From assembly GCA_963822985.1 (NCBI GenBank), contig CAWGJU010000018.1:48394-112393 (forward strand): a stretch of 64,000 bases of DNA. The letters are read 5' to 3'. The position numbers and the translations under genes were made by a program. Shown one piece after another: positions 6,809 to 31,577 of the stretch (position 1 is its first letter; every line of letters starts with the position of its first letter). The notes below the pieces were generated by a model. It made no database searches, was not told the origin of the DNA, and saw nothing but the letters and a program-made list of their open reading frames with translations. Source of the stretch: an uncultured Alphaproteobacteria bacterium. GTDB lineage: Bacteria > Pseudomonadota > Alphaproteobacteria > Rhodobacterales > Rhodobacteraceae.

Positions 6809-6829
6809 GGCCTCTGACCTGAGTGTTGT

Positions 6830-10037: not shown

Positions 10038-10038
10038 G

Positions 10039-10874: not shown

Positions 10875-10932
10875 ACCGTGATCGCGTGCCGCGCCCATCC
10901 TTGCTGCCGCAAGGGCAATAAGAGGGGAAGCC

Positions 10933-12643: not shown

Positions 12644-12683
12644 AGGGCCGGCTCTGGCGCGCGCCGGGCGTGCGCCGACCGCT

Positions 12684-13660: not shown

Positions 13661-14247
13661 CAGAGCGCGCCCTTGGTCGAGGGGACGGCGTCGGCCCGGC
13701 GCGGGTCGGGCTCGACCGCGTCGCGCAAGCTGCGCGCCACCGCCTTGAAGACCGCCTCGGCGACATGGTGCGCGTTCACGCCGTCCAGGCGCTCGACATG
13801 CAGGGTCATGCGCGCGTTCATCGCGAAGGCGGTGAAGAACTCGCGCACCAGCTCGGTGTCGAAGCTGCCGATCTTCGCCGCCGCGAAATCGACCTTCCAG
13901 ACGAGGTATGGCCGGCCGGAGAGGTCCAGCGCCGCCCGCGCCAGAGCATCGTCCATGGGCAGGAGGCAGGACCCATAGCGGCGGATGCCGCGCTTGGTCC
14001 CCAGCGCCTCGTCCAGCGCCTGGCCGAGCACGATGCCCACATCCTCGACGGTGTGATGATCGTCGATGTGCCGGTCGCCCTTGGCATGCACCGTCAGGTC
14101 GAACAGCGCGTGGCGGGCCAGCTGGTCGAGCATGTGGTCGAAAAAGCCCACGCCCGTTTGGTTCTCGTACCGGCCGGTGCCGTCGAGATCCAGCGCGACC
14201 GTCACCTCGGTCTCGGCCGTCTTGCGCGTCTTCTTCGCCTGCCGCAT
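13660..14247 (-). CDS. hisB: Imidazoleglycerol-phosphate dehydratase
   Basis: [46 protein letters not shown]. Confidence 0.96.
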
Positions 14248-14338
14248 CGCCCGCCGCATCCCACAGTCCTGCCAGCGCCGAGCCGCCGGCGCGCGCCTCA
14301 CCTAGCAATTTCCGGGCGGCGTGGCTATCTGCCCGGCC

Positions 14339-14893
14339 ATGGAAAAAGACGCATCGGGCTGGCACGGCACCACGATCGTTGCCATCAAGAAGGGCGACAA
14401 GGTCGCCGTGGCGGGCGACGGGCAGGTCTCGCTCGACAAGACGACCATCAAGTCGAACGCGCGTAAAGTACGGCGGATCTCGCCCGGCGGGCACGACGTC
14501 GTCTGCGGCTTTGCCGGGGCGACGGCCGATGCCTTCACGCTGCTCGAGCGGCTGGAGGGCAAGCTGGAGAAGAGCCCCGGCAACCTGATGCGCGCCTGCG
14601 TCGAGCTTGCCAAGGACTGGCGCACGGACCGCTATCTGCGCAACCTGCAGGCAATGCTGATCGTCACCGACGGGCGCGAGCTTCTGGTGGTGACCGGCAA
14701 TGGCGACGTGCTCGAGCCCGAGGGCGGCATCGCCGCGATCGGCTCGGGCGGCAACTACGCGCTGGCCGCCGCCCGGGCGCTGGCCGACCACGAAGCGGAT
14801 GCCGAGCGGCTGGCCCGCAAGGCGCTGGAGATCGCCGCCGGCATCTGCGTCTACACCAACGGCAACGCGACCGTCGAAGTGATCGACGCGTGA
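14339..14893 (+). CDS. hslV: ATP-dependent protease subunit HslV
   Basis: WHGTTIV (N-terminal Thr nucleophile after processing), [27 protein letters not shown]. Confidence 0.96.
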
Positions 14894-14915
14894 CGCGGCC
14901 CCGAACAGGAAACCC

Positions 14916-16220
14916 ATGAGCGACCTGACCCCCCGCGAGATCGTCTCCGAGCTCGACCGCTTCATCATCGGCCAGAAGGACGCCAAGCGCGCCGTCGCGG
15001 TGGCGCTGCGCAACCGCTGGCGGCGCCAGCAGCTCGACCCCGCCATGCAGGCCGAGATTTACCCGAAGAACATCCTGATGATCGGCCCGACGGGCGTCGG
15101 CAAGACCGAGATCTCGCGCCGGCTGGCCAAGCTGGCGAACGCACCCTTCATCAAGGTCGAGGCGACCAAGTTCACCGAGGTCGGCTATGTCGGCCGCGAT
15201 GTCGAGCAGATCGTCCGCGACCTGGTAGAGAGCGCCATCGCCATGGTCCGCGACCGCCAGCGCGCTGAAAAGCGTGCACAGGCGCACGAGGCGGCCGAGG
15301 AGAGGGTGATCGACGCGCTGGTCAAGGGCGATTCGAGCGAGACGACGCGGCGTTTCTTCCGGCAGAAGCTGCGCGCCAACGAGCTCGACGACAAGGAGAT
15401 CGAGCTGGAAATCGCAGACACCGCGAACCCCATGCCGTTCCTCGACATACCGGGCGGCGGCGGCCAGATCGGCATGGCGAACCTGGGCGACCTGTTCGGC
15501 AAGGCCTTCAAGGGGCGCAAGAAATCCGTTCGCACCACCGTCGCCGACAGCTACAAGCTGTTGATCGACGAGGAGGCCGACAAGCTGATCGACGACGAGG
15601 CGATCAAGCGCGAGGCGATCCAGGCGGTCGAGCAGAACGGCATCGTCTTCCTCGACGAGATTGACAAGGTCTGCGCCCGCTCAGAGCACCGCGGCGCCGA
15701 TGTCAGCCGCGAGGGCGTGCAGCGCGACCTGCTGCCGCTGATCGAGGGCACCACCGTCACGACCAAGCACGGCGCGGTGAACACCGACCATGTCCTCTTC
15801 ATCGCATCGGGCGCCTTCCACATCGCCAAGCCGAGCGATCTGCTGCCCGAGCTGCAGGGCCGCTTGCCGATCCGGGTCGAGCTGCGGGCGCTGACCGAGG
15901 ACGATTTCCGCCGCATCCTGACCGAGACCGACAACGCGCTGACCCGGCAATACGCCGCGCTGATGGGCACCGAGGCCGTCGAAGTCGAGTTCGCCTCCGA
16001 TGGCGTCGAGGCGCTGGCCCGCGTAGCCGCCGAGGTGAACGCCACCGTCGAGAACATTGGCGCCCGTCGCCTGCAGACGGTGCTGGAACGCGTCTTCGAG
16101 GAGCTGAGCTTCACCGCCCCCGACCGCGGCGGCGAGAAGGTGGTGGTGGACGGCGCCATGGTGGAGAAGCACCTCGGCGACCTGGCGCGGAGCGCGGATC
16201 TGAGCCGGTACGTTCTCTAA
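14916..16220 (+). CDS. hslU: ATP-dependent protease ATPase subunit HslU
   Basis: [60 protein letters not shown]. Confidence 0.97.
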
Positions 16221-16674: not shown

Positions 16675-17473
16675 TCGACAGGTCCCATGAACTGCCGCTG
16701 ACCGGCCAGGGATTGGGCAGGCGAAGGCGCTCGGGATCAGCCGGGGCGGCGTTTACTACCTGGCGCGGCCGACCTCGGCCGCCGACCTGGTGCTGATGCG
16801 CCGGATCGATGAGCTGCACCTCGAGCATCCGTTCGCGGGCAGCCGGATGCTGCGGGACATGCTGAAGGCGGAAGGCCGCCATGTCGGCAGCCGGCACGTT
16901 GCGACGCTGATGAGAGTCGAGGCGATCTACCGACGGCCGAACACCTCGAAGCCGGCGCCCGGGCACAAGATCTATCCATACCTGCTGCGCAACCTGGCGG
17001 TGACGCGGCCCAACCAGGTCTGGGCGAGCGACATCACCTACGTGCCGATGGCGCGGGGGTTCGTCTACCTCGTCGCCATCGTCGACTGGTTCAGCCGCAA
17101 GGTCCTGGCCTGGCGGCTCTCGATCACGCTGTCGGCGGACTTCTGCGTCGAGGCCCTGGAGGAGGCGCTCGCCCGGCACGGCAATCCCGAGGTCTTCAAC
17201 ACGGACCAGGGCAGTCAATTCACCTCGACCGACTTCACCAAGGTACTGAAGGACGCCGAAATCGCGATCAGTGTCTTCGTCGAGCGGCTCTGGCGGACGG
17301 TCAAATACGAGGAAGTCTATCTGCGTGCTTACGCCGGTGTCACGCAAGCCAGAGCTTCGATCGGCCGGTATCTGAGCTTCAACAACGGCAAGAGGCCGCA
17401 TTCGTCGCTTGGCGGGAAAACTCCCGATCAGGCATACACCAACCTGCCGACGCCAATCCCGGCGGCGGCCTGA
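16671..17473 (+). pseudogene. IS3 transposase OrfB (DDE integrase core), disrupted
   Basis: WASDITY, DWFSRKVLAW, NTDQGSQFT. Small insertion near 16710 shifts the frame. EIAISVFVERLWR lacks the usual MDGKG..RDN segment. Confidence 0.85.
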
Positions 17474-17643
17474 AATGGGCGGCGAAGCCACTCAAAAACG
17501 CCCGGGAAGGTGTTCAGACGAACCGAGCCACCTCTGCGTGTTGCGGGCCCAGACGGGGAAACTTCGAACGCGATTTTCGAGACTTTGAAGGACTGGGAGC
17601 ATCAGCTCAAGCACAGTGAGTTCGCAGCGCCAGAGATGGAGCC

Positions 17644-18075
17644 ATGAGCGCGCCTCTCCGCAACTCCGCCCTTACGGTCCGCGACAGCTTCGATGCCGCG
17701 AGATCGGAACGCCCTTCCCGCCCGGCACGTCGGACGAAAACACCGCCGCCCTTCTCCCTGCGCCTGAGTGCTGAAGAACGTGCGCAGTTGGAAAGTGCAG
17801 CAGGCGGGATGCCTCTCGGCAGCTTTATCAAGGCGAAGCTCTTTGACGGCGATCTGAGCCCGCGCCGCGCCCGCAGCAAAACCCCGGTCCGAGATCACGC
17901 CGCCCTGGCGCAGCTACTCGGCATGCTCGGCAATATGAGGCTGGCCAACAACCTCAACCAGCTCGCCCGTTCGGCCAATATCGGGACGCTGCCCCTGACG
18001 CCTGAAGTCGAAGAGGAGCTGGCTACCGCCTGCGCGGCGGTGATTGCCATGAAGGCCAAGCCTATGCTGGCGCTC
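17644..18075 (+). pseudogene. mobC: MobC-type mobilisation/relaxosome accessory protein; 3' end fused to unrelated DNA, no relaxase downstream
   Basis: PPFSLRLSAEERAQLE (ribbon-helix-helix-like) and RLANNLNQLARSAN (MobC signature). Confidence 0.75.
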
Positions 18076-18079
18076 GCCT

Positions 18080-18460
18080 TCGGCCACCAGCAGCATGTCG
18101 GGGAGCTCGGGATGGCTGGCGCGGATGCGGGCCGGGCCCTCGGCGCGCAGTACGGGCTTCGGCGCCTTTTCGCACCATGACCAAGTGTTGCGGAACCAGA
18201 GCTGCGGGACCAGCGCGATCTCGGCCGCCTCCGGACCGCGATTGTGCGCCGTGATCCACAGCAGCGTGTCGTTGGGCCCGCCCTTTGCATAAGCGATCTC
18301 GACGTCCCAGTAGCGGTCGTCGTCGAAGATGCCGGTGTCGATCAGCTCGAACTCCGGATCGGTCTTCGAGCGCGCGCGGTTCGTCTCGATCATCTCGGCA
18401 TAGGGGAAGGCCCGCTGCGGGTACTTGTAGACCGTCTGCGACCGGAGCGGGTTCGCCATG
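18080..18460 (-). pseudogene. Internal fragment of a GH63/MGH1-like glucosidase
   Basis: YKYPQRAFPY...EFELIDTGIFDDDRYWDVEIAYAK...ITAHNRGPEAA...PQLWFRNTWSW; truncated at both ends. Confidence 0.75.
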
Positions 18461-18534
18461 CTTTGCACACCTGAATGAGTCGGCCGCCGGCCGATGGCCG
18501 ACGGCGCCTGGGACCGGGCCTTCGATGGGAAGTG

Positions 18535-19434
18535 TCAGACGCCCGCGACCTCGCGCAGGTATCCTCGGGCCTTGCGGGCATAATCCAGCGGGTTGGCCTT
18601 GCGCCGCGTCCTGCTCGGCCTCGACCATCAGCCAGCCTGCGTAGTCGGCGTCGGCGAGCGCCTGGAAGATCGGGCGAAAGTCGATGCAGCCGTCGCCCGG
18701 TACGGTGAAGATGCCCTCGAGCATCGACTCGTAGAAGGTCCGATGGCGGCGGTTGCAGCTTTCCATCACGTCCTGCCGGATGTCCTTGAGATGGACGTGC
18801 TTGATCCGGTCGGCATAGGCGCGGGCCATGTCGAGCGGATCGTCGCCGGCCCAGTAGAGATGGCCGGTGTCGAGCAGCAGGTGCACGGCCTCGGGGTCGG
18901 TGTCGTTCATCAGCCGGTCGACCTCGGCGCGCGTCATGACGCCGGTGCCCATGTGATGGTGATAGCAGAGACGCATGTCGTTCTCGGCGGCCATCCGGCC
19001 CAGCTCGTTCAGCCCCTCGGTCATCGCCCTCCACTGGTCGCGGTCGAAGAGCGGCTTGTTCGAGATCGGCGGGACGGGCGCTGGTGCACGGCGTGGCCGA
19101 GCTCGGCGACGACGACGTCGACGTGCCGCCCATCCGCTTGATGAAGCGCCATCGAGTTGCAGAAGCCCTCGATCGTCCGCTCGCGCATGTCGCGCACGGT
19201 GAAGAAGGTGCTCGACCAGGGCTCGGAGACGCGCAGGCCGCGGCGCGACAGCTCGGCTTGCAGCACCTCCGGGTCCTTGGGGTACTTGTGGCCGACGCTG
19301 CAGCCCTCGAAGCCCGCCAGCGCCATCTCGCTGACGCATTGGCCGAACGAAATGTCGTCGCCGAGGCCCGGAAGTCGTCGTTCGTCCAGCCGGTCGGCGT
19401 GATGCCGACTAGATACCTTCGCGCAGTCGAACAC
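18535..19434 (-). pseudogene. iolE: IolE-like (myo-inosose-2 dehydratase family) TIM-barrel dehydratase, several frameshifts
   Basis: Across frames: GITPTGWTNDD, GDDISFGQCVSEMALAGFEG, CYHHHMGT, LLLDTGH, HVHLKD, FTVPGDG, VEAEQD, KANPLDYARKAR. Confidence 0.85.
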
Positions 19435-19447
19435 TGGGGTGCTCCTT

Positions 19448-19942
19448 TCAAGCCTCGATGCGGGGCGGGGTCGCCCACATGCCGTATCCGAGGGGCTTGG
19501 CGCCGGACGGATTGGCGCCGATGGCGGGCCAGAGCAAGGCCCTCGGTGTAGGAGTCGGGCGAGACGACGAAGTCCCGGTCCCCTTCGCCGGTCCCGTAGG
19601 CCTCGCGCCAGTCGCGCGGCATGCCGTACCAGGTGCCGATGTACCAAAGCTTGATGACGTTGCGCGCGACCGGCCCGAGCCGGTCGTCGCTGAGGATCTC
19701 GCGGCGCAGGCCGCGGTCGATCGCGCCCTCCTCGCCATCCGCCTCGCCGGCGACCCGGCGGTAGGCGGCGAGCAGGTCGGCGATGGTCCTCTCCCCGACG
19801 ATCCGCAGGGCGGTCGAGGTAGAGGCTCGCTCTGGCCGGTGCCGCGCAGGCGGAACTCGGAAAACCCGGTCAGCGCCGCGGACAGGGCGAGAAAGTCGGT
19901 CAAGGCGCTGTCGGACTGCGATGTCGGCTCTCCATCATGCAC
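19448..19942 (-). pseudogene. Small (gamma) subunit of FAD-dependent sugar dehydrogenase (sorbitol dehydrogenase small-subunit family), frameshifted
   Basis: FLALSAALTGF...GPVARNVIKLWYIGTWY...SPDSYTEG(L)LWPAIGANPSGAKPLGYGMWATPP. No twin-arginine leader seen. Confidence 0.75.
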
Positions 19943-21013
19943 GGCATCTCGAAGGTCGGGGCGGCGTGCTCGCCCGCCCAGGCCTCGATCGGCTGGCGCA
20001 TCAGGCGGCAGCACAGCTCCTTGATGTGGAACATGCCGCCGACCGCCTCGATGCAGCAGGTTCGGGCGCGCCGCCGAAGGCGCGCGTCAGCAGGTCGAGG
20101 AACTGCTCGTAGCGTCGCGGTTGAAGGCCTCGGCGCCCGCGGCCGCAGCTCGGAGCCCTCGGGATAGTCGGCGAGCCGCGCGTTCGTCCTGACGGGATAG
20201 ACCGCGTCCCAGTCGACCTCGACCGGCCCGCCGCTGGGCTGCCCGCGCGCGTCGCCTTGCCGGTAGTAGCGGCCGCGCAGCAGCTGCTGAAACCGGTAGT
20301 AGTGCGCGATCTCGTCCTCGTCGATCGAAGATCGCGTCGCTCGACCCCTCGCCCTGCTCCGAGATCAGCTCGATCGCCGGCCTTGGCCGAGGCCAGATCG
20401 GTGACGGGGACGACCTCGCCGCCGCCGGAATAGTAGTAGTCCGGCGTGATCTGCCGGGCGCGGGTCGCCGCAGAAAAGCGCGTCGCCATGCTCGCGCGTG
20501 CAGACGCGTCGAGGCCCTGCTCGATGGCCTTGTAGAATTCGCCGATGCTGTAGAAGTGCTCCTCGGAGTCGTCGTGGACGCGCGCGGCGCGCGAGCGACC
20601 GCCGTCCGCGGCGCGCTCGCGCGTGACGGTCGTCCGCCCTCGCCGGCGGCGCTCGGCCGGGCGCTCGATCTTGAGGAAGCGTCTCGATCGCCGCCTTCGA
20701 GAAGGGCTGGCAGATCGACCTGGAAGTCGGTCTCGCCGTCCGGCAGGATAGGCCGGGTAGCGCGGCACGAAGCCCGGACCGCGTCAGGTCCGGTGCGCCG
20801 CCGACGGCGTTGAGGATGTTCGCCGCCAGCGTCAGGTGCAGCATCTCCTCGACCGCGACCGCCCGGATGACGTGGAAGGCGTCCGAGTTCGTCCCCGGCC
20901 GGATCGAGTACAGCGCCGTCAGATAGGGCGGGATCGTCGCGTGTTCGAGCTGCATCGCCGCGTGCAGGTGCTCGCTGCAGCTCGTCGATGTCGCTGATGT
21001 GGTGCAGGCTCAT
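19940..21013 (-). pseudogene. Ferritin-like (VioB-type) di-iron domain protein, multiple frameshifts
   Basis: MQLEHATIPPYLTALYSI...VAVEEMLHLTLAANILNAVGG; SIGEFYKAI; ISEQGEG; SHYYRF. 3' end approximate. Confidence 0.8.
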
Positions 21014-22925
21014 GCCGTCGCTCCCTCGGCGTCTGCCCGGATCGGGGCCGCGGCCCGTCTGATGTCTTTGGCGATGTGCTCGGCGCTGCGGAAGCAGAGC
21101 GCGGCGAGCGTCAGCGTCGTGTTCGCCGTGCCGACGCTCGGCATGCTGCCGGCGCCGACGAGGTAGAGGTTGTCGTGGTCCCAGGAGCGCTGCCGGTGCG
21201 TCGACGACCGAGTCGTGCGCGCTCGCGCCCATCAGGTGGGTGCCCGGCCCAGTGATTGCCGCCGCGCAGGACGTAGGCCTCGCCCTCGTAGTTGACATAG
21301 CCGTAGGCGGCACGGGTCGTAGGCCGTGTGGTCCTCGGCGCCGAGCCGCTGGAAGATGCGCCGCGAGAGGCGCCGGCGCGAAGGCGGCACGCCTCGAGCG
21401 TGTATTGCGAGACGCCGAAGGAGATGACCGGGCGCGGGTTGCCGAGCTGGTCGGTGAACTGCGGATCGACGCGTGACGCGGTTGCTCTCCTCGGGCAGGA
21501 CCTCGATCATGCAGTCGAGCAGCACCTGGCGCGAGACCCGGTCGACCAGCCCCTCGCGCAGCGCGCGGCCGAAGCGGTTCTCCATGTCGACCAGGCGATC
21601 GAGATCGGTATAGGGTGCCGCCGGTCGCCCAGCCCCAGCCGTCATTGTGGATGCTGAAGCGGAAGGCCGCCTGCGGCGCGCGGAACGGTCCCGTGCGCAG
21701 GTCCTCGATGCCCGAGGTGCAGAGCGGCCCGCGATCGGCGCCGGCCATCTCCGGCATCAGCGCCCAGGTCAGCAGGTAGGCATGGTCCATCAGGTTGCGG
21801 CCGACCAGTCCGCTCGAGCCGTGCAGGTCGAGGCGAGCATCAGGCGGGCGTTCTCGACGGCGTTGGCGGCGAGCACGAAGATCTTCGCCCGCACGCGTGC
21901 CGGTGGTGTGCTCGGGTGAACCTGGCGTCGGCGTAGCTCTGGAACTCGATGCCGGTGACCCGGCCGGTCGACGGGTCGATCAGAACCTGCGAGGCGACGG
22001 TCTGCGGCAGCAGGTGGACGCGCCCGGTCTCGAGCGCGGCGACCAGCGTGCGGCGGGCGTCGTACTTGGCCTGGACCGGGCAGATCGGCACGCAGTTCGT
22101 GTTGCCCTGGCAGCGCTCGCCCATCTCGGCCTGGTGGATGCTGACGGCGCCCACCGGCTTGTAGCCCCTGCCGCCGTCGTAGTCCGGGTTCGGGATGCCG
22201 TTGCGCGCCTGCGGCGTGCTGCGGACGCTGCAGCGCATAGGTGTCGCCGTCGAGCGCCGACCTCGAATGCCGTCCAGGTCCCGCGCGATCAGCCTTGTCG
22301 AGGTAGGAGGGCGGCATGCCGCGCATCGGGAAGACATAGTCCGTCGCCGAAAGTCGAGCCCGCCATAGTCCTGGTCCTCGACATCGCCCGAGACGCCCAG
22401 CTCGCGTTCGGCGCCTGGCGGTAGTACGGGCCGAGCTCGTCATAGCCGAGCGGCCAGTCGCGCCCGCGGCCGAAGCGGCGTGCGCAGCGCGAAGTCGTCC
22501 GGCAGCATGCGCAGCGCCTTGGCCTCCCAGTGCCGGGTCGTGCCGCCGAGCACGCGGGCATAGGTGCTGTCGATCTCGAACGGGCCGTTCTGGACGAAAT
22601 AGCCGGCCGTCGTTCGGCGTGCCCGGGCGGAGCTTCTGCGTCTCGTAGCTCGCGCGGCATGGGCGCGTTCGCGGTTCTCGGCATAGGCGGCGTTGTTGTC
22701 CTTGGAGACGGCCGCGTAGAAGCGCTGCACGCTTTCCTCGTAATCGCCGATCGTGATGTCCTTGCCGGACCCCGCCTCCATGACCAGGACGCGCGCGCCG
22801 CCGGCGCTCAGCTGCTTGGCGATGATCGCGCCGCTGACGCCGGAGCCGACGATGACGACGTCGTAGTCGGTCTCTCCGGCACGCTCGGGACTGACCTCGA
22901 AGGTCGGGTTCGCGCGGGCGCTCAT
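21010..22925 (-). pseudogene. GMC-family FAD dehydrogenase large subunit with Cys-rich Fe-S motif, many frameshifts
   Basis: DVVIVGSGVSG (FAD), VLGGTTRHW, RCQGNTNCVPICPVQAKY, VGRNLMDH, GTHLMG, WDHDNLYLVGAGSMPSVGTANTTLTLAAL. Confidence 0.88.
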
Positions 22926-23136
22926 CGGCAACCCCGCGGCGCGACGGTGCGCGCCTCCCTGTGCGCCGCGACGTTCGTTCCGGCCCTCGCCGCGACGGCG
23001 GAGCGGATTGGTGAGGAGTTCATGGCGATCTCCATTTCTCTGCCTCGGGATCGGCTGGCCCGACCCGATGATGAATCGGGAAGCGTCACCCCCGGATCTC
23101 CAGGGGCATTGGCGGCGGCCTCGTTCTGCGTGGTGC

Positions 23137-24060
23137 TCAAACCGGATCCGGATCTGCGGACGCCGAGAGCGGCGCGATCACGAAGCGCCAGGACCGGCTC
23201 TGCCCGGGCCCGACATGCGCGATCCCCGGCTTTCCCGACAGCGGACCGGTGAAGTCGACCTGCGCCGGGTAGCCGTGCCATGGCTCGAGCGCGAGGAACG
23301 CCGCACCGGGCTGCATCCAGAGCCCCAGGTTCGGGCTGTCGGGGAAATCGAGGCGGAGCCCTGCGCCGCCCTGGCGGGCGAAGGTGAGGCTGCGGCTCTC
23401 GAGGCAGTCGAAGACGATCGGCTGCGCGCCCTCGAAGAGCTCGTCGCGCGGCCGCAGGAGTCGTCCGTCGACCGGGCTCGGCTGCGGCTCGGGCAGCAGC
23501 ATGACCGGGTCGTCGACGCCGCGGCGGATCGGCTCCGGCTCCTCGGTCGCGAACGTGACGGTGTACGCGTCCTTGGACTGTCCGGGCTCGAGCGGCCAGT
23601 TGAAGCCCGGGTGGATGCCGACATCGCACGGCATCTCCGTCGCGCCGCGGTTCTCGACCGAAAGCGTCAGATGCAGGTCGGCGCCCACCAGCCGATAGTA
23701 CGCCTGGAAGGCGAATGCGAACGGGTAGTAGCGGCGCGTCTCGGCACTGTCCTCGAAGCGCAGCAGCACCTCGTCCGCCTCGTGGCGGTCGACGGCAAAA
23801 GCCGCGCTTCGGGCGAAGCCGTGCGGCGGCATCGGGAACTTGCGCCCCTCAACCTCGATGTGCTGATCAGGCGTCTGCGAGATCAGCGGGAACAGCACCG
23901 GCGCGTGATCCGGCCAGCGGCCGGGTGCGCCCTGCCAGATCAGCTCCGGCATGCCGGCCGGCCGGAACGAGACGAGCTCTGCCCCGGTCACCCGGACGAG
24001 CGCGCTCGCCTGTTCCGTCTCCAGCGTGACGACGTCATCGACCTGTCGCGCCCCGTCCAT
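23137..24060 (-). CDS. Aldose 1-epimerase family protein
   Basis: GAELVSF, WPDHAPVLFP, MPPHGFAR, YYPFAF, GIHPGF, FLALEPWHG; TGATG overlap with GH15. Confidence 0.88.
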   Translation of the reverse strand: MDGARQVDDVVTLETEQASALVRVTGAELVSFRPAGMPELIWQGAPGRWPDHAPVLFPLISQTPDQHIEVEGRKFPMPPHGFARSAAFAVDRHEADEVLLRFEDSAETRRYYPFAFAFQAYYRLVGADLHLTLSVENRGATEMPCDVGIHPGFNWPLEPGQSKDAYTVTFATEEPEPIRRGVDDPVMLLPEPQPSPVDGRLLRPRDELFEGAQPIVFDCLESRSLTFARQGGAGLRLDFPDSPNLGLWMQPGAAFLALEPWHGYPAQVDFTGPLSGKPGIAHVGPGQSRSWRFVIAPLSASADPDPV

Positions 24061-25880
24061 CAGAGACCGCCCGCCAGTTCGGCCGCCCGGTCGAGCGCCG
24101 CATCGAGCGAGCGCGCGGCGCCGACCAGGCCGAGATGCGTGAAGGCCTGCGGGTAGTTGCCGAGATGCTCGCCGGTCGGGCCGAGCTCCTCGGCGTAGAG
24201 GCCGAGCGTGCCGGCATAATGCAGCATCTTCTCGAAGATCAGCCGCGCCTCCTCGACCCGCCCGGCGCGGGCCAGGCAGTCGACATACCAGAAGGTGCAC
24301 ATGCTGAAGGTGCCTTCCGAGCCGGCCAGCCCGTCGGACGCCGCCTGGTCCGTCCGGTACCGGTAGACGAGGGAGTCGTCGACGAGCTCGCGCCCGACCG
24401 CGTCGAGCGTCGACAGCCATCTCGGATCGCGCGGCGCGATGAAGCCGGCGATCGGCATCAGCAGGCACGACGCGTCCAGGATCTTGCTGCCGCGGTACTG
24501 GACAAAGATCTTCCGCTCGGCGTCCCAGAAACGATGGTAGATCTCGTCGTGGATCGCGTCGCGCGTCGCGCGCCAGCGCTCGAGCGGGGCCGGCAGCGAG
24601 CGCCGCTCGGCGATACGCACCGCGCGATCGAGGCCGACCCAGTCCATGAGCCGCGAGTAGAGGAACCGGCGCTGCCCGCCGCGGACCTCCCAAACGCCCT
24701 CGTCCTCGCGGTCCCAGTTCTCGCAGACCCACCCGACCGTCTTCTGGATGTGCGTCCACAGGTCGTTGTAGATCGGCTCGACCTTGGCATCGTAGCGCTC
24801 GAGGAACAGCAGCAGCTCGCCATAAATATCGAGCTGGAGCTGCGAATAGGCGCCATTGCCGATCCTGACCGGCCGCGAGCCCTTGTAGCCGTCCAGGTGC
24901 TCGAGCGTCTGCTCGGTCAGCTTGCTCCGGCCGTCGATGCCGTACATGATCTGCAGTTGGCCGTCGCCCGACTTGCGGTACCGGTCGAGGATCCAGTTGA
25001 CGAAGCTGCGCGCCTCGTCGTGACAGCCGACGTCGACCAGGGTCGCCGCCGTCAGCGAGGCGTCCCGGATCCAGGTGAAGCGGTAGTCCCAGTTGCGCTC
25101 GCCGCCCACGCTCTCCGGCAGGCCGAAGGTCGCCGCCGCGGCCAGCGAGCCGCATGGCGCCGAGGTCATCAGCTTCATGCCGAGCACCGAGCGATTGACC
25201 GCCTGCGTCCACCGTCCGTCGTAATTGCAGCCGGCCATCCAGTCGCGCCAGAAGCGCAGCGTCCGCGTGAACGCCTGCTCGGCATAGCCCGGGCCCTCGA
25301 CGACGCTGGTGTGGTCCTCCTGCGCGACCTCGAGCACGAAATCGGCCTCCTCGCCGGCTTCCAGGGTGAAGTGCGCGCGCACGTCGCGATGCGCGGCGAC
25401 GACGGGCACCGGCGCGTGCAGCCGCAGCGGGCGGTTGTGCGCGTGCCGCGGCCGGAACAGCGCCTGGTTGCCGTCAATCTCCAGGCTGTGCTCGCCGCGC
25501 GCATAGTCGAACCGCGGCGCGCACAGCATTTCGAACGAGACCCGGCCGCGGATGGTCTTGACCCGCCGCACCAGCCTGTGGGCGTGCTGCTCCTCGGGCG
25601 TCGGCATGAAGTCGACGATCTCGGCGACGCCGTCCTTGCCGAGGAACCGCGTCATCAGGATGTTGGTGTCGGGAATATAGAACCGCCGGGTCCACTGGTT
25701 CTCCATGATCGCCGAGATCCGGAAACGGCCCCCTTCCTCGTCGTCGAGCAGCGCCGCGAAGACCGTCGGCGAATCGAAATGCGGCATGCACATGAAGTCA
25801 ATGCTGGCATCTTCGGAGACGAGCGCCAGCGTGTGCATGTCTCCGATCAGTCCATAACTCTCGATTGGCTGATATGCCAT
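24060..25880 (-). CDS. Glycoside hydrolase family 15 (trehalase/glucoamylase-like)
   Basis: YGLIGDMHT, PHFDSPTVF, NWDYRFTWIRDAS, QLDIYGE, GVWEVRG, LGLYAEE, GNYPQAFTHLGL. Confidence 0.92.
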   Translation of the reverse strand: MAYQPIESYGLIGDMHTLALVSEDASIDFMCMPHFDSPTVFAALLDDEEGGRFRISAIMENQWTRRFYIPDTNILMTRFLGKDGVAEIVDFMPTPEEQHAHRLVRRVKTIRGRVSFEMLCAPRFDYARGEHSLEIDGNQALFRPRHAHNRPLRLHAPVPVVAAHRDVRAHFTLEAGEEADFVLEVAQEDHTSVVEGPGYAEQAFTRTLRFWRDWMAGCNYDGRWTQAVNRSVLGMKLMTSAPCGSLAAAATFGLPESVGGERNWDYRFTWIRDASLTAATLVDVGCHDEARSFVNWILDRYRKSGDGQLQIMYGIDGRSKLTEQTLEHLDGYKGSRPVRIGNGAYSQLQLDIYGELLLFLERYDAKVEPIYNDLWTHIQKTVGWVCENWDREDEGVWEVRGGQRRFLYSRLMDWVGLDRAVRIAERRSLPAPLERWRATRDAIHDEIYHRFWDAERKIFVQYRGSKILDASCLLMPIAGFIAPRDPRWLSTLDAVGRELVDDSLVYRYRTDQAASDGLAGSEGTFSMCTFWYVDCLARAGRVEEARLIFEKMLHYAGTLGLYAEELGPTGEHLGNYPQAFTHLGLVGAARSLDAALDRAAELAGGL

Positions 25881-26533
25881 CTGCCCTCCTCGGCGGTCGA
25901 CTGGCGGCCGCCGATGCTATCCAGAAATCTATTGTGCGCCGTGTGGTAGACGGCATAACCTAAAGGCTTCATTACCCAGGCGGCGGTGCCGATCAGCGGA
26001 TGGTGCAGTTCGGCGACCACGGCGACGAAGATCGCAGCGAGCGGAAAGCTGATGGCGTGATAGGCGGCGCGGCGACGCAGGAACCGCGCCTCGTATGTCG
26101 CGTGCAGCTCGGAATGCTGCGACAGATACCAGGCGTTCAGCGCCATCAGCATGCCGTTGAGCAGCATGATCACCGAGAAGATGGCCGCCGAAAGCAAATC
26201 CTCAGGATAGTCGCCGACCAGATTGGCGCCGAGCGGAATCAGGGTGACGCCGCCGAGCTGCAGCATGTTAATGACGATGAAGCCGCTGTCGGTTCTGCCG
26301 CTGTGCGCGAACAGGTAATGCTGGTCGTACCAGACAAGCCCGATGACGACGAAGCTGATCATCCACGCCGTCAGCTCGGGGGCCTGGTTCCTCAGCTGCG
26401 CCCAGAGCACGGCATCGTTCGCGGCGTCACCGGGAACCTTGAGATCCAGCACGAGAAGCGTGATCGCGATCGCGACGACGCCATCCGAAAGCGCTCCGAT
26501 GCGTTCGATCCCGAAGGAGCGGATGCTCGCCAT
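25847..26533 (-). CDS. TMEM175-family potassium channel
   Basis: ERIGALSDGVVAIAITLLVLDL (RxxxFSD-like), YDQHYLF; about 6 hydrophobic segments. Confidence 0.85.
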   Translation of the reverse strand: MASIRSFGIERIGALSDGVVAIAITLLVLDLKVPGDAANDAVLWAQLRNQAPELTAWMISFVVIGLVWYDQHYLFAHSGRTDSGFIVINMLQLGGVTLIPLGANLVGDYPEDLLSAAIFSVIMLLNGMLMALNAWYLSQHSELHATYEARFLRRRAAYHAISFPLAAIFVAVVAELHHPLIGTAAWVMKPLGYAVYHTAHNRFLDSIGGRQSTAEEGRWHISQSRVMD

Positions 26534-26736
26534 TCAGGGCTTTTCCTTCCGGCCCGCTCTTGCGTGCGTTCGACCCGATCCAGGCGCCCGGCCGCTGTGC
26601 GAGGCCAAGGTCGGCACCCGGTTGATGAGCGTGCAACCCTCATCCCTATCGCATCCTCGGCCGCAGGACTTGCCGAAGGGTTAAATGGCCGGAGCGTCGT
26701 CCGGCATGACGGCCGGGCCGGTCGTTGGCCTTCCGG

Positions 26737-27198
26737 TCAACCGGCGCATCTGGCGACGAGGGCTGCCTCTGCGAGCAGGCCGGCCCGCATCATCATCATA
26801 GCAATCAGCCCCTGGCAGGTCGGCGAGCGGTCGAAGGAGGGCATCGCGGAGAGGGCGAAGAGCCGGAAACGGTAATGATGAACGCCAGACCCCGGCGGCG
26901 GGCATGGCGGAAACAGCCCCACGGCGCCGAAATCGTGCAGGACCGGCCGAGCCGGGTCGGCCAGGTCGCCGGTTCCCTCCGGCAGTTCGCGCGTCTCTGC
27001 CGGGATGGCATAGGCGCCGAAGTGCCTGAATGCCCCGCCCGGCGCATCGGGGTCTTCCAGAATCAGGGCGAATCCCACCGTCCCATCCGGCACGCCAGAC
27101 CATGCGAGCGGCGGCAGAAGGCCGGCACCCCGGCAGGTGTACTTGTCGGGAAGCTCGGAGTTCGCGGCGAAGGCCGGCGAGGCCAGCGTCAGCGGCAT
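26737..27198 (-). CDS. YbhB/YbcL (PEBP/Raf kinase inhibitor-like) protein
   Basis: MPLTLASPAF...YTCRG...PPLAWSGVP...ILEDPDAPGG...PCPPPGSGVHHYRFRLFAL; AAGGAG RBS. Confidence 0.85.
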   Translation of the reverse strand: MPLTLASPAFAANSELPDKYTCRGAGLLPPLAWSGVPDGTVGFALILEDPDAPGGAFRHFGAYAIPAETRELPEGTGDLADPARPVLHDFGAVGLFPPCPPPGSGVHHYRFRLFALSAMPSFDRSPTCQGLIAMMMMRAGLLAEAALVARCAG

Positions 27199-27369
27199 GG
27201 ATATCTCCTTGGAAATCGAAACTGCCATCCGTTTCGCCGCGGCATCGGGTCGGCTGGTCGCGGCAGATTTCTGTTCGCGCGGTCACTGGACGGTCATGGC
27301 GGCCGTCGGCGGCAAAGTCTCCTCTATTTAATTCGAGGTGATGAATGGTTGAGACTTCACAAAGGCCAA

Positions 27370-27385
27370 TCAGAATCAATTCTGA
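27370..27385. promoter_or_regulatory. Palindromic operator candidate in the AT-rich divergent promoter
   Basis: TCAGAAT-CA-ATTCTGA perfect 7-bp inverted repeat. Confidence 0.4.
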
Positions 27386-27496
27386 ACCGTGAATGCATAT
27401 AGCCGGAAGGAAATTTTAAGGATTGGGCGGTGAGGTGCCGATCGGTTCAATTTGCTGCAACGTGCAGCCATTCCAGTCGGCGGCGAGGAACTCCGA

Positions 27497-28717
27497 ATGA
27501 AGGTTAAATTCGCGCAACCCAGGTTCGAGCAGGCTCTGGTCGAGGGCGGCCTCAAGGACGGCTACTGGCTCGACAGCGTCGACCTGAACGGCGACGGGCG
27601 GCCGGATCTCGTGGCCTCCGGCCTGGCTGTCGGCGAGATCGTCTGGTACGAGAATCCCGGCTGGAAGAAGCACGTTATCGGCCAGCTCTCGAAGCCGGTG
27701 GCGATGGATCACATCGACATCGACGGGGACGGGCGCCAGGATCTCGTTATCTGCCACGACTATGGCGAGTGCATGTATCACTGCCAGCCCGAGGACGGTA
27801 AGATCTCGTGGCTGCGCAATCCCGGCAACGGCGCCCACGGCCCTTGGGAGCAGCGCTTCGTCGCCGACCTGATGGCGACGCACCGGTTGCGCTTCGGCTA
27901 TTTCACCCAGCGCGAGAAGCCCGAGCTGATGGGGCTCCCGGTGGTTGGGCCCGAAGGCGGCATGGCCGGCGTCCACGAACCGGTGCAGGTCATGCTCTAC
28001 CGCCGCCCCGACGACGTGGCGAGCGCCGAGAAATGGGAAGGCGAGCTGATCGACGGCCAGAACTTCCGGATCATCCACGACGTCGTGGTCGGCAAATGGG
28101 GCGGCCCGGACGCCCTCAACTCGGTCATGCTGGCGACCGAGGAAGGCGTCTGCTGGTTCCGCTACGAGAACGGTACCTGGAAGACATCCGTGCTCGGCAC
28201 TGGCGAGCTGACCGAGTACACGAAGACGCATTTCAAGGGCACCGGCAATCTCGCCTTCGGCAAGGTCGATGGCGATCCCCATGCCTATATCGCGACCGTC
28301 GAGCCCTTTCACGGCAACGTGGTGGCAGTCTACACAAAGGAAGGTGGCGGCCGCCTTGACGACGCGCGCTGGCGCCGCACGGTGCTCGATGTTTACGGCG
28401 ACCCGAACGCCTCCGATGAGGGTCCCGGCCATCACGTGATGGCGGCGGATTTCGACGGCGACGGCGACGACGAGTTTCTCGTCGCGCTGCGCGGACCGTG
28501 GCCCTGGCAGGGTGTCTTCTATTACAAGTGTATCGACGTCGAGAACGCTGTCTTCACCAAGACCCGCATCTCTTCGGCATCGGCGGCGCGTATCGCCCTC
28601 GGGGACTTCGACGGGGACGGCCGCATCGACTTTGCGACCACGGGTTACTACACGCCAGGATACTTCCTCTGCGATGATCCAAGCGTATTGGTTTTCTATA
28701 ATAGGATCGAGCATTGA
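27497..28717 (+). CDS. FG-GAP beta-propeller protein homologous to the dehydratase domain of aldos-2-ulose dehydratase (AUDH)
   Basis: DGYW, PVAMDHIDIDGDG, ISWLRNPG, ATHRLRFGYFT, IIHDVV, EPFHGNVVAVYTK, GHHVMAADFDGDGDDEFLVA, FTKTRISSASAARIA, DFATTGYYTPGYF. These match, in order, motifs I recall from fungal AUDH. No signal peptide. Confidence 0.75.
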   Translation: MKVKFAQPRFEQALVEGGLKDGYWLDSVDLNGDGRPDLVASGLAVGEIVWYENPGWKKHVIGQLSKPVAMDHIDIDGDGRQDLVICHDYGECMYHCQPEDGKISWLRNPGNGAHGPWEQRFVADLMATHRLRFGYFTQREKPELMGLPVVGPEGGMAGVHEPVQVMLYRRPDDVASAEKWEGELIDGQNFRIIHDVVVGKWGGPDALNSVMLATEEGVCWFRYENGTWKTSVLGTGELTEYTKTHFKGTGNLAFGKVDGDPHAYIATVEPFHGNVVAVYTKEGGGRLDDARWRRTVLDVYGDPNASDEGPGHHVMAADFDGDGDDEFLVALRGPWPWQGVFYYKCIDVENAVFTKTRISSASAARIALGDFDGDGRIDFATTGYYTPGYFLCDDPSVLVFYNRIEH

Positions 28718-29028
28718 AGTATCAGGACGCCTCGGAACCCCGCAGCGGCGTCGCCGTGGCGGTGAGGATGTCGAGGTTGCGTTAGCGTGGTTCCGTCGAC
28801 TCGGACGAGTTGCTGCGCTGGGCTTTCAGAGGCAGACGATGCGCTCGAGCGGCTTTTGCGGGCGGTCGGGACGACGTGCTCCCCTTTTCAGCCGTTGGCC
28901 GCCCTCCCGGTGAGAACGGCGGTGCAAAAGTCGGCCCCGGTAGCGGCGGGATGATCCCGCGGCGGGCGGCGTAAAAGTCGGCCAGGTTTGCCCTCTCTGA
29001 CGGCAGGGAGGGCGGGGGCATTTTCAGC

Positions 29029-30561
29029 GTGGAGTTGTATCGGAAGGTGCGCCGTGCCTATTTCAGGCAGGGCATGAGCAAGCGGGGGATCGCGCGCCAC
29101 TTCGGGATCTCGCGCGACAGCGTGGACAAGATGATCGTCTACTCGGTGCCGCCGGGCTACCGGCGGACGGCGCCGGTGAAGCGGCCGAAGCTCGACGGGT
29201 TCACCGAGATCATCGACCGCTGGCTGTGCGAGGATGCGGACCGCCCCCGCAAGCAGCGGCACACGGCAAAGCGGGTTCTCGACCGCCTCCGTGACGAGCA
29301 CGGGTTCACCGGCGGCTACACGATCGTGAAGGCGTATGTGCGCGAGCATCAGCGGCGCGGCCGGGAGATGTTCGTGCCGCTGCACCATGCGCCCGGGCAC
29401 GCGCAGGCGGACTTCGGCGAAGCGCTGGTGGTGATCGGCGGGGGTCGAGCAGATGGCGCACTTCTTCGCCTTCGACCTGCCGCACAGCGACGCCTGTTAT
29501 ATCCGGGCCTACCCGGCGGCGACGGCCGAGGCGTGGGCCGACGGCCACGTGCACGCCTTCGCCTTCTTCGGGCGGGTGCCGCTGTCGGTGCTCTATGACA
29601 GTGAGGAGGATCAGAAATCGATCCAGTGGATCGATTTCCCGACGAACCGCTGCCTGGTGGCGCGCATCCTGCCGGACGGGACGCGCCAAGCGGGCCCGCG
29701 CTCTTCCAGCGGATTGCTGTCGCACTACGTCATCGAGGATCGCTCCGGCCGGCCGGGCAAGGGCAACGACAAGGGCAGCGTCGAAGGCTCGTCGGCTGGT
29801 CGCGGCGGAACTTCATGGTGCCGCTGCCGCGGTTTGCGACCTGGAACGACTTCAACGCCTGGCTCGAGGAGCAGTGTCGCAAACAACTCGCCGATGTCCT
29901 GCGCGGCCACAGCGAGACGATCGGCGAGCGGCTCCAGCGCGATCTCAAGGCGATGGCTCCGCTGCCGCCGGCGTCATTCGAGGCCTGCGACCAGGCGACG
30001 GGCCGGGTGAGCTCGCAGGCGCTGGTGCGCTACAAGACCAACGACTACTCGGTGCCGGTCGCCTACGGCCACCGCGACGTCCGGGTGCGGGGCTATGTCG
30101 ACCAGGTGGTCATCGGCTGCGGCGGCGAGATCATCGCCCGCCATCCACGCTGCTACGGCCGCGAGGACATGGTCTTCGATCCGATCCACTACCTGCCGCT
30201 GCTGGAGAAAAAGATCGGCGCCTTCGACCAGGCTGCACCGCTGGTGGGCTGGGAACTGCCCGCCGAGTTCCAGACGCTGCGCCGGCTGCGGCTGCTGGAG
30301 ACGTTCGAGCTCGGCGAGCTGCATTTGGCGGTGAAGACCGCGCTGAGGATGGGCGCCGTCGGCTTCGACGCCATCAAGCACCGTTCGCCATGGCGCTCGG
30401 ACCGGTGGCACGCCATGGCTCACCCGTGCCAGGTCGAGAGGCGGCCGCCGAAGCTCGACCTCGACGTCTACCCCTACCTGCCGCGCGCCAACGTCGGGAC
30501 CACCTCGGCGGCGAGCTACATGTGCCTGATCGCCGGGAGCTCGGCCGGTGGCTCGGCATGA
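29029..30561 (+). pseudogene. istA: IS21 transposase IstA, frameshifted, with insertions and a deletion
   Basis: MELYRKVRRAY, HGFTGGYTIVK, HAQADFGEA, LYD, GNDKG, YKTNDYSVP; extra G near 29445 and further indels. Confidence 0.88.
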
Positions 30562-30845
30562 GCGACGCGCCGAAGCTGCTGCTCGACCACCACCTCAAGA
30601 CGCTGAAGCTGCCAACCTTCCTTCGGGAATACGGCAAGCTCGCCCGCCCGGCGGCATACGCCGCCAGGATCGTGATCTGCGCGCATCCGCGCGCGGGGCG
30701 CCGCCGAGGGGCAGGACCATGTGCAGTTCCTGGCCCGGCTGGTGGAGCTCGAGCTGATCGACCGCGAGCGCCGGATGATCGAGCGCCGGATCAAGGCGGC
30801 AAAGTTCCCGGTGACCAAGAGCCTCGACAGCTTCGACTTCAAGGC
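30558..30845 (+). pseudogene. istB: IS21 ATPase IstB, 5' fragment
   Basis: LLDHHLKTLKLPTFLREY...ELIDRERRMIERRIKAAKFPVTKSLDSFDF; breaks off before Walker A. Confidence 0.85.
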
Positions 30846-31029
30846 GAGGCGAACCGTGCCTGCCGCGAAGGTGCGCCGCTTAAGAGTATCCCCGAGCCGG
30901 GCGGGGGCGTCGCTGACGAGGAAGGAGATGGCTGCGCAGCAACCCAACCCCTACGGAACACTGATCGGCTCACGGCGCCCGCGAACCAGATCCTCCAGCA
31001 GATCGAGGCGATCCTGGCCCCAGAACAGC

Positions 31030-31577
31030 TCACCACGATAGGTCCAGCTGGGCGCCCCGAACACCTGCGCCTTCACCGCCGCCTCGGTCTCGGCCTTCGC
31101 CTGGGCATGAATCTCCGGCCCCTCCGCCTTTGCGAGGAGCGCATCTCCGTCCGCGCCAAGATCCTCGGCGACGGCCTTCAGCGTCGCCGGATCGGCAACG
31201 TCTCGATCCTCGACCCAGCAGGCGCGCATGAAGGCACCTGCGAGTGAGCCAACGTCCAGGTTCATCTGCGAGGCGGCGAGGAGGACGCGTGCACTGAGTG
31301 CGGCATTTGTCGGGAAGTGCTTGGGGTGGAGCGTCAGCGGCAGCCCCAGTCGGTCGCGCCAGCGCTGCAGCTCGAACAGCCGGTAACGCTGGCGCTGCGG
31401 CGCCCGCTTCGGCAGCGGCAGACCACCAGAGCCTGCGAACACCACCCCGAAATCGACCGGGTGGAAGCGAACCGCGAGACCGGTATCGGCGGCCAGCCTC
31501 ATGAAGCGGTCGTGCCCCAGATAGGACCACGGGGACGGGACGGTGAAATAGTAGTCGATCGTCTTGTCGCTCGTCAT
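31030..31577 (-). CDS. 2-hydroxychromene-2-carboxylate isomerase / DsbA family (GST kappa-like)
   Basis: IDYYFTVPSPWSYLG, KRAPQRQRYR, VFGAPSW, LFWGQDRLD. Confidence 0.9.

Follow-up and report, generated by a model that had tools for sequence, protein, structure and literature searches.

In fungi, glucose is converted via glucosone to cortalcerone, and 1,5-anhydrofructose via ascopyrone M to microthecin; the aldos-2-ulose dehydratase (AUDH) of Phanerochaete chrysosporium is known in structure (PDB 4A7K). Here we analyzed a stretch of 64,000 nucleotides from an uncultured Alphaproteobacteria bacterium of the family Rhodobacteraceae (assembly GCA_963822985.1, contig CAWGJU010000018.1, positions 48,394 to 112,393 of the forward strand), hereafter the window, in which a gene for an AUDH-type propeller stands divergent from a minus-strand run encoding a flavoprotein of the GMC family, a ferritin-like protein, a small subunit, an IolE-type dehydratase and glycosidases. 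A preliminary description, made from the sequence alone, had read this locus as a keto-sugar oxidation and dehydration system not described in bacteria. Our analysis suggests that a modular, apparently cytoplasmic pathway of keto-sugar oxidation and dehydration is widespread in bacteria and is represented by one copy in the window, and we propose its mechanistic outline with moderate confidence.

The role of bacterial pyranose oxidases, which will be seen to belong to related clusters, has been described as unclear (PMC11650716), and two recent papers on these enzymes do not mention gene context. No description of the gene neighbourhood was found in the literature searchable as open-access text, where absence is not proof, in agreement with the earlier claim of novelty. 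The cluster is real, conserved and apparently undescribed.

Overall organization of the cluster

The features of the cluster, listed from the propeller to the distal end of the minus-strand run, are as follows; L001 and similar numbers denote related loci in other genomes.

27497..28717, plus strand: AUDH-type seven-bladed propeller, 406 residues, intact (Pfam AUDH_beta_propeller PF22301, E = 2e-50 over 27497-28714)
27199..27496: divergent intergenic region between the YbhB and propeller genes, 54% G+C against ~68% for the whole window, with one promoter-like site per strand
26737..27198, minus strand: YbhB/PEBP-family protein, 153 residues, intact (Pfam PBP, 2e-27; 66% identical to the L001 orthologue, which matches TIGR00481)
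25847..26533, minus strand: TMEM175-family K+ channel homologue, 228 residues, intact (Pfam TMEM175, 5e-24); its 3' end overlaps the start of the next gene
24060..25880, minus strand: glycoside hydrolase of family 15 (GH15) with a trehalase-like N-domain, 606 residues, intact (Pfam Glyco_hydro_15, 2e-74, and TREH_N)
23137..24060, minus strand: aldose 1-epimerase, ~307 residues, intact (Pfam Aldose_epim, 3e-17; full-length 50% match in L010)
21010..22928, minus strand: large subunit of the GMC flavoprotein, carrying the cysteine motif C-x5-C-x3-C (3Fe-4S), 19 frame-breaking indels (468/625 residues identical to the L001 orthologue)
19945..21013, minus strand: ferritin-like protein of family PF12902, ~356 residues, 15 frame breaks (Pfam E = 3e-28 in the window)
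19454..19920, minus strand: small subunit, ~155 residues, 2 frame breaks
18538..19434, minus strand: IolE-type, xylose-isomerase-like TIM-barrel dehydratase, 298 residues, 6 frame breaks (246/296 residues identical to the L001 orthologue; AP_endonuc_2, 6e-26)
18112..18483, minus strand: remnant of an MGH1-like/GH63 glycosidase (tblastn; residues ~122-240 of the 916-residue L001 orthologue, 52% identity)

In agreement with this list, tracking of G+C content by codon position revealed coding on the minus strand from ~27.2 kb down to ~18 kb, and one gene on the plus strand, at 27.5-28.7 kb. Two junctions, read directly, show overlapping stops and starts: TGATG between GH15 and the epimerase, and ATGA between the GMC and ferritin-like genes, where the ATG of the latter overlaps the stop of the former. 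The whole run named in the preliminary description was found near the positions given there (by Pfam, by tblastn for the GH63 piece and by alignment to the orthologue for the small subunit), its domain calls were borne out by Pfam, NCBIfam and PDB comparisons, and the shared AT-rich region from which it had the two arms transcribed has promoter-like sites in both directions. However, the GMC, ferritin-like, small-subunit and IolE-type genes are not intact open reading frames in the window: between 18.5 and 23 kb, Ferritin-like, AP_endonuc_2 and the N and C pieces of GMC_oxred are scattered among the three frames of the minus strand.

Conservation of the gene association

The nearest relatives of the propeller on long contigs have the same partners as in the window, and the gene set recurs beside propeller orthologues in many phyla. 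Locus L131, from an independent metagenome, repeats the window order gene for gene, from the IolE-type gene through the small subunit, ferritin-like protein, GMC flavoprotein, epimerase, GH15, TMEM175 and YbhB to the divergent propeller, with all open reading frames intact and 80% DNA identity over 8 kb; it has in addition a SnoaL-like gene beside the propeller. The divergent arrangement of the YbhB and propeller genes is also present in L001-L004. In Thioalkalivibrio nitratireducens and Aureibacter tunicatorum, co-directional seven-gene operons encode the GMC flavoprotein, the ferritin-like protein, the small subunit, the propeller, a GDE-like protein, a GH63/MGH1-like glycosidase and the IolE-like enzyme, and co-directional operons of the same composition occur in L049, L060, L062, L065 and L066.

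To quantify the association, metagenome contigs were scanned with a family-specific core of the propeller, which yielded 80 loci whose partner genes were tabulated by tblastn. Among the 50 non-redundant loci with a propeller of at least 52% identity, an IolE-like gene was found in 31, any glycoside hydrolase (GH) gene in 25, any GMC gene in 24 and an ion channel or exchanger gene in 14. For the 13 of these propellers with at least 4 kb on both flanks, the counts are 13, 13, 11 and 7, respectively. By contrast, none of these four partners was found at any of the 14 loci of a sister propeller clade (40-52% identity, both flanks present). Members of the sister clade (L008, L109, L113 and L122, 40-50% identity) instead adjoin genes for a membrane acyltransferase of the Acyl_transf_3 family, for a UDP-GlcNAc 2-epimerase, for an FAD oxidase of the BBE type or for another kind of xylose-isomerase-like TIM barrel. 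These counts, together with the empty sister clade, show that the association is specific to the clade of the window and far above chance, and we rejected chance juxtaposition of the genes. A lack of co-conservation, which the preliminary description had named as the outcome that would speak against its proposal, is contradicted by the collinear L131, the operons of Thioalkalivibrio and Aureibacter and the above counts.

Three flavours with an exchangeable oxidoreductase

Comparison of the loci revealed that the system is modular and occurs in three flavours. Flavour A combines an Fe-S GMC flavoprotein, the ferritin-like protein and the small subunit (the trio) with the propeller, the IolE-like enzyme and GDE/GH63-type glycosidases; the window belongs to it, with GH15, the epimerase, TMEM175 and the YbhB-type protein as accessory genes. 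In flavour B, a single GMC protein of 534 residues replaces the trio. Flavour C is devoid of the propeller; after the trio and the IolE-like enzyme it has a protein with a PCC domain and another TIM barrel, which resembles ketose-3-epimerases. It was found in the following loci:

L129 (Salipiger aestuarii), 3195-14979: flavour C
L130, 5253-16324: flavour C

Both have the order glycosidases, GMC, ferritin-like protein, small subunit, IolE-like enzyme, PCC (PF03479), ketose-3-epimerase-like TIM barrel and metallo-beta-lactamase/ODP-type protein. L130 also carries a gene of the animal haem peroxidase family.

The GMC protein of flavour B passes as a pyranose oxidase on the equivalog model TIGR02462 (602 and 616 bits, cutoff 544.9). 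It matches the characterized pyranose oxidase (POx) of Oscillatoria (PDB 9FL2, 6e-149), fungal pyranose 2-oxidases (P2Ox, ~1e-119) and, less closely, glycoside 3-oxidase (PDB 7qf8, 1e-60). The 9FL2 enzyme is reported to have a substrate profile and regioselectivity as in fungal pyranose oxidases (PMC11650716). In the tabulated loci, the ferritin-like protein occurs only with the Fe-S GMC flavoprotein and never with P2Ox, and the oxidoreductase slot is filled by the trio or by P2Ox, never by both. Since two unrelated oxidoreductases occupy one slot beside the same downstream enzymes, they most likely deliver one product. That the trio and P2Ox stand in for each other without ever occurring together supports formation of a C2-keto-sugar and its subsequent dehydration; the keto-sugar interpretation of the preliminary description is thereby strengthened on this point and, taken as a whole, partly supported.

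A gene for an HbpS-like/GlcG protein (PF03928), possibly for the handling of peroxide or haem, also recurs in 7 of the 50 loci, mostly of the P2Ox flavour (L044 at 17042-17470 and L046 at 129-536, as well as L050, L051, L052, L056 and L089).

The AUDH-type propeller

Alignment of the propeller against AUDH (PDB 4a7k) covered residues 18-431 of the 900 residues of the fungal enzyme, with an E-value of 1.6e-67 and 37.5% identity. AUDH is identical at 78 of the 117 propeller positions that are invariant in the bacterial family, among them four histidines. Seven residues in AUDH numbering, His155, His215, His295, His337, Asp283, Arg156 and Asn297, are invariant across 14 bacterial propellers and AUDH. 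The family counts at least 1581 homologues, and the propeller is a candidate aldos-2-ulose (2-keto-sugar) dehydratase.

The alignment stops at AUDH residue 431, and the central double-cupin (isomerase) and C-terminal lectin domains of AUDH are missing from the 406-residue propeller. A cupin gene as a regular replacement for the isomerase domain was rejected, for cupins lie near only two loci. A gene for a SnoaL/NTF2-like protein of ~147 residues, on the other hand, directly adjoins the propeller gene in 15 loci (L131 at 8657-9100, L049 at 9137-9565 and 13 others), and sits between the YbhB and propeller genes in L131 and L132. Where found, the SnoaL-like protein is a candidate tautomerase or isomerase that could replace the missing cupin domain. 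The window does not carry it: a spacer of 298 bp takes the place of a segment of 729 bp.

The IolE-type TIM barrel

On the equivalog model TIGR04379 (iolE), which has a cutoff of 290 bits, orthologues from every flavour score higher, with 373 (L001), 371 and 346 bits, and the L001 orthologue matches PDB 3cny with an E-value of 3e-77. A marginal match was found to the 2-hydroxy-3-keto-glucal hydratase 8ro4 (8e-7), whereas no deglycosidase chain of the CarB, DgpC or OGE type in the PDB matches the TIM barrel at E <= 1e-3. The other myo-inositol genes iolG, iolD, iolB, iolC and iolA are absent from the window block and from the Pfam-annotated related loci. As its partners are pyranose-oxidizing enzymes and glycosidases, the physiological substrate of the IolE-type enzyme is probably a 2-keto-pyranose; the pyranose form of glucosone is sterically close to scyllo-inosose.

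The scores above the equivalog cutoff and the match to IolE structures would also suit a cyclitol route, in which glycosidases release myo- or scyllo-inositol, or another cyclitol, from a glucosyl-cyclitol, the GMC unit oxidizes it to an inosose, the IolE orthologue dehydrates the latter as in the classical iol pathway and the propeller catalyzes a following step. We consider this route improbable, given the missing iol genes, an alternative oxidoreductase that is a pyranose oxidase orthologue and the recurrence of aldose 1-epimerase as a member.

Another possible chemistry proceeds through 3-keto-glycosides: the GMC protein would be a glycoside 3-dehydrogenase, and the TIM barrel would use beta-elimination to cleave or hydrate its product, a chemistry known from the systems for levoglucosan and C-glycosides and from that of Agrobacterium. 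The wider Fe-S GMC family includes glucoside 3-dehydrogenases, and the marginal match to 8ro4 points in the same direction. Xylose-isomerase-like TIM barrels catalyze such eliminations and hydrations (PMC10628242). Against it, the TIM barrel is IolE-like with an E-value of 3e-77 and has no significant match to C-deglycosidase subunits, the replacement enzyme of flavour B is closer to the C2-specific P2Ox than to glycoside 3-oxidase, and cleavage by elimination would be redundant beside the hydrolytic glycosidases and mutarotase of the same operon. We give this chemistry a small probability, equal to that of the cyclitol route. An initial reading of the cluster as a glucoside 3-dehydrogenase with a CarB-like lyase was dropped for the same two reasons, the IolE type of the TIM barrel and the P2Ox type of the alternative oxidase.

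The putative oxidation trio

Searches against the PDB revealed that the L001 orthologue of the GMC flavoprotein resembles over its full length the alpha subunit of FAD-dependent glucose dehydrogenase (FAD-GDH; 6a2u_B, 2e-70) and fructose dehydrogenase (FDH; 7w2j_A, 1e-66). The cysteine motif of the window, ERCQGNTNCVPICP, aligns with PQCCGNNNCMPICP of FDH. On the pyranose-oxidase model TIGR02462, orthologues of the window type reach 51-58 bits, below the cutoff of 544.9. As FAD-GDH, to which the large subunit comes closest among solved structures, is a C1 oxidizer, the GMC protein might be a soluble glucose 1-dehydrogenase that forms gluconolactone, with the "dehydratases" acting on the lactone, on gluconate or on unrelated substrates. 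This is highly improbable in our view: P2Ox orthologues replace the trio, the AUDH and IolE families are known only with ketone substrates, and neither a lactonase nor a gluconate kinase was seen in the loci.

The ferritin-like orthologue matches PF12902 with an E-value of 8e-68; its family numbers at least 2647 proteins, none of which has a name. The invariant residues Glu23, Glu56-x-x-His59, Glu237/Glu240 and Glu252-x-x-His255 follow an E/ExxH/E/ExxH pattern, and the protein probably binds two metal ions. The predicted model (mean confidence score pLDDT 81.7) has a sole structural relative, CC_0557 (PDB 3hl1; phmmer 2e-15; Foldseek 9e-10, TM-score 0.59-0.74), apart from weak fold matches to Bfr, Dps, rubrerythrin and Mn-catalase. 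The ferritin-like partner, in the place of the usual cytochrome c subunit, is the most novel element of the cluster, and its arrangement with an Fe-S flavoprotein may be new in itself.

The small subunit, which the preliminary description had taken for a dehydrogenase small subunit, is one of at least 596 proteins that form a conserved family without any named member. Its best fold match, to the small subunit of FDH, is weak; no Pfam or NCBIfam family was hit, and a profile search against PDB sequences gave only noise. The model consists of a confident N-terminal helical bundle and a C-terminus (residues 107-153) that is strongly conserved yet disordered and unmodelled. No twin-arginine or hydrophobic N-terminus was found in four small-subunit orthologues, no Sec- or Tat-like N-terminus and no CxxCH motif in the cluster proteins examined, and no cytochrome family in any of the Pfam-annotated loci. 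From the absence of signal peptides, the trio is predicted to form a soluble, cytoplasmic complex.

Proposed pathway

We propose that alpha-glucosidase-type enzymes, GH15 in the window and GDE/GH133-like and GH63/MGH1-like proteins elsewhere, would act on an alpha-glucoside or glucan inside the cell, for example trehalose, glycogen or a compatible solute with a glucosyl group, and set free its glucose, and that the epimerase, acting as a mutarotase, would equilibrate the anomers. The flavoenzyme would then oxidize the pyranose at C2 to a 2-keto-sugar of the glucosone type. In the window this oxidation unit would comprise the 3Fe-4S GMC protein, an FdhS-like small subunit without Tat signal and the translationally coupled ferritin-like protein, which holds the position of the cytochrome c of related complexes and probably serves as electron acceptor, perhaps as a di-iron oxidase that, most simply, passes the electrons to O2. 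Finally, the metal-dependent propeller and the IolE-type TIM barrel would eliminate water once or twice by beta-elimination, so that a 4-deoxy-2,3-diketo sugar (diulose) or an enolone/pyranone is formed. Enzymes of the AUDH propeller, IolE and ketose-3-epimerase types are known for the removal of a proton next to a ketone; the extra ketose-3-epimerase-like enzyme of flavour C likewise acts at C3, beside a C2 carbonyl.

Several points weigh against this proposal. The nearest solved relatives of the Fe-S GMC flavoprotein act at C1 of glucose or C5 of fructose, and glucoside 3-dehydrogenases belong to its wider family; because these relatives differ in the position that they oxidize, homology does not fix the position here. 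The known substrate of IolE is the ketone of a cyclitol, not of a sugar. As the propeller comes without the cupin and lectin domains, the fungal end products should not be assumed, and the assignment of zinc ligands among the conserved residues of AUDH is tentative. The role of the ferritin-like protein is a guess from its sequence motif, and the small subunit matches FdhS weakly (9jqa_B, probability 0.98, E = 0.22, TM-score ~0.4). The proposed chemistry assigns no part to the YbhB-type protein or the ion channels, and the data at hand do not account for the sharp localization of the frame-breaking indels described below.

A more far-reaching version, possible but rather unlikely, would make the trio a new soluble cytoplasmic sugar:oxygen oxidoreductase, in which a di-iron ferritin-like subunit, in the place of the cytochrome c of FAD-GDH/FDH-type complexes, either oxygenates the sugar or forms water from O2. 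It would feed a pathway to pyranones of the cortalcerone, ascopyrone or kojic acid class (glucose minus 2H minus 2 H2O) from stored trehalose or glycogen, tied to osmotic or desiccation responses that involve the ion channels.

Frame breaks in the window copy

Frameshift-aware alignment of the intact L001 proteins to the window DNA located 42 frame-breaking indels: 19 in the GMC gene, 15 in the ferritin-like gene, 2 in the small-subunit gene and 6 in the IolE-like gene. They are limited to one patch of 4.4 kb from 18.5 to ~23 kb, at about one per 100 nucleotides, and a frame-tracking model placed nearly all of its switches between 18 and 22.5 kb. After correction of the frames, the proteins are 75%, 69%, 63% and 83% identical to their L001 orthologues, respectively, and contain no in-frame stop; the intact propeller and YbhB-type neighbours show 76% and 66% identity. 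Against L131, we counted 64 frame-breaking insertions and 23 deletions, with GH15, TMEM175 and the propeller clean. Homopolymer slippage was rejected as the main cause, since the same base adjoins only 14 of 55 single-base insertions.

These indels could mean that the window carries a cluster of true pseudogenes, in which a rearrangement mediated by insertion sequences (IS) cut the GH63 gene and lost the SnoaL-like gene, after which the dehydrogenase and IolE genes decayed and the system became inactive. The number of breaks across four neighbouring genes, the truncated GH63 gene beside IS3, MobC and IS21 remnants, the lack of the SnoaL-like gene of L131 and L049, and a sharpness of localization that random sequencing error, expected to be more even, would hardly give, are consistent with such decay. 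Yet we consider it unlikely, because the corrected frames are free of stops, amino-acid divergence is on par with that of the intact neighbours, insertions prevail while bacterial decay is generally biased towards deletions, and 19 independent frameshifts in a single gene with neither nonsense nor excess missense changes are implausible. The insertion bias, the absence of in-frame stops and the normal substitution divergence together favour assembly error over decay. Thus, the stretch of 18.5-23 kb is most likely a locally error-rich, unpolished or gap-filled part of the assembly, and the organism itself probably has intact copies of these genes.

Outside the cluster, the very G+C-rich segment at window positions 10977-14260 has several same-strand frame switches near a His_biosynth match, which suggest further frame errors.

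Accessory genes and surroundings

GH15 scores 392 bits on the TreH1-like model NF041084 of NCBIfam, under its cutoff of 820, and at 1e-10 its only PDB matches (phmmer) are spurious ones to designer pentatricopeptide repeat (PPR) proteins via a stretch of 22 residues. The name "pentatricopeptide repeat protein" that one source gives to members of its 90% cluster was discarded as an annotation artefact of helical repeats, not homology. The 916-residue L001 orthologue of the GH63 remnant matches MGH1-like_GH and Glyco_hydro_63 in Pfam, and the GH63-like protein has a marginal PDB match to yeast glucosidase I only.

Three unrelated channel or exchanger families, TMEM175, bestrophin-like and Na/Ca exchanger, recur in or beside the clusters. 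The TMEM175 gene has an equal position in L131, L048 and L130, and the genes of this group were located as follows:

Window, 25847-26533: channel/exchanger gene (TMEM175)
L046, 7476-8291: channel/exchanger gene
L049, 15738-16721: channel/exchanger gene
L006, 11299-12432: channel/exchanger gene

They have no evident role in sugar chemistry and may be connected with osmotic or ionic stress.

The cluster lies in a region rich in mobile elements (IS3-type, MobC/NikA-like, IS21 and IS91-family), the nearest of which are:

16691-17470: IS3-type transposase fragment, left of the cluster
17620..18177, plus strand: MobC/NikA-like open reading frame outside the system, at the left truncation of the cluster (Pfam MobC, 1e-4, and NikA-like, 2e-3, both weak)
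28975..31040, plus strand: frame-broken IS21-type istA/istB remnant at the right boundary (read from translations, with frame switches)

An intact IS91-family Y2 transposase lies farther to the right, at 37582-38814. Housekeeping genes of the window (Lhr helicase, AdoHcy hydrolase, HisF-like and HslU-like) suggest that the replicon is a chromosome and not a plasmid. At 43893-45056, the window also encodes an intact bacterial eRF1-like protein of 388 residues (baeRF family 11/8), unrelated to the cluster; the usual contexts of baeRF-type proteins are conflict or defence.

Implications and comparison with known systems

If the proposed pathway is true, at least six phyla or major lineages have a counterpart of the fungal pyranosone pathway, as the loci belong to Gammaproteobacteria, Alphaproteobacteria, Bacteroidota, Chloroflexota, Actinomycetota and metagenome-assembled genomes of the Planctomycetota type. 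It would provide a physiological context for bacterial pyranose oxidases and account for thousands of genes now misannotated or unannotated, namely those named "VCBS/FG-GAP repeat" and the orphan "IolE" genes. Reactive enolones or pyranones are conceivable as products, and these could act as antioxidants, metal chelators or antimicrobials. In addition, the ferritin-like partner suggests a new electron-transfer arrangement for the FAD-GDH/FDH family, which is much used in biosensors, and the recurring TMEM175, bestrophin-like and Na/Ca-exchanger genes point to an unexplored link of glucose-based solutes and their turnover to ion homeostasis.

Compared to IolE of myo-inositol catabolism, a 2-keto-myo-inositol dehydratase (3CNY), the TIM barrel of the cluster aligns end to end and lies above the equivalog cutoff, but it comes without the other iol genes and is joined by pyranose-oxidizing enzymes and glycosidases. 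The 3-keto-glycoside system of Agrobacterium, CarABC/DgpABC and the levoglucosan enzymes LgdA-B likewise combine a sugar oxidoreductase with a xylose-isomerase-like TIM barrel for carbonyl-based elimination. They differ from the cluster, in which the TIM barrel is not of the CarB/DgpC/OGE type, the exchangeable oxidase is not of the glycoside 3-oxidase type and classical hydrolases are present.

Regarding the oxidation unit, the FAD-GDH of Burkholderia cepacia (alpha-beta-gamma, 6A2U) and the FDH of Gluconobacter japonicus (FdhLCS, 7W2J/9JQA) share with the trio a homologous large subunit with the C-x5-C-x3-C 3Fe-4S motif, and the helical core of the window-type small subunit is most similar, weakly, to FdhS. 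However, the large subunit of the cluster is longer by ~90 residues, the small subunit has no Tat signal, and in the place of the multi-haem cytochrome c subunit with its CxxCH motifs stands a translationally coupled PF12902 protein, in a complex predicted to be soluble and cytoplasmic. CC_0557 of Caulobacter (3HL1), the only solved relative of this partner, has no assigned function and belongs to a family shared with VioB/RebD-type enzymes; the ferritin-like protein of the cluster differs from it in a disordered insert of 50 residues and a fixed Fe-S flavoprotein partner.

The closest parallel is the fungal P2Ox/AUDH route, which leads to antibiotics. Homology to the N-terminal domain of AUDH extends over the entire propeller, the sister clusters have a P2Ox orthologue by the propeller, and both systems would follow the logic of oxidation at C2 and subsequent dehydration. 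In contrast to the 900-residue fungal enzyme, the bacterial propeller stands alone, and the oxidant in the window is the Fe-S GMC/ferritin-like/small-subunit trio in place of P2Ox. The bacterial cluster further adds an IolE-type enzyme and often a SnoaL-like protein, and, in the absence of secretion signals, has genes for ion channels and intracellular glycosidases linked to it. Altogether, the bacterial system works like the fungal P2Ox/AUDH route and is not a member of it.

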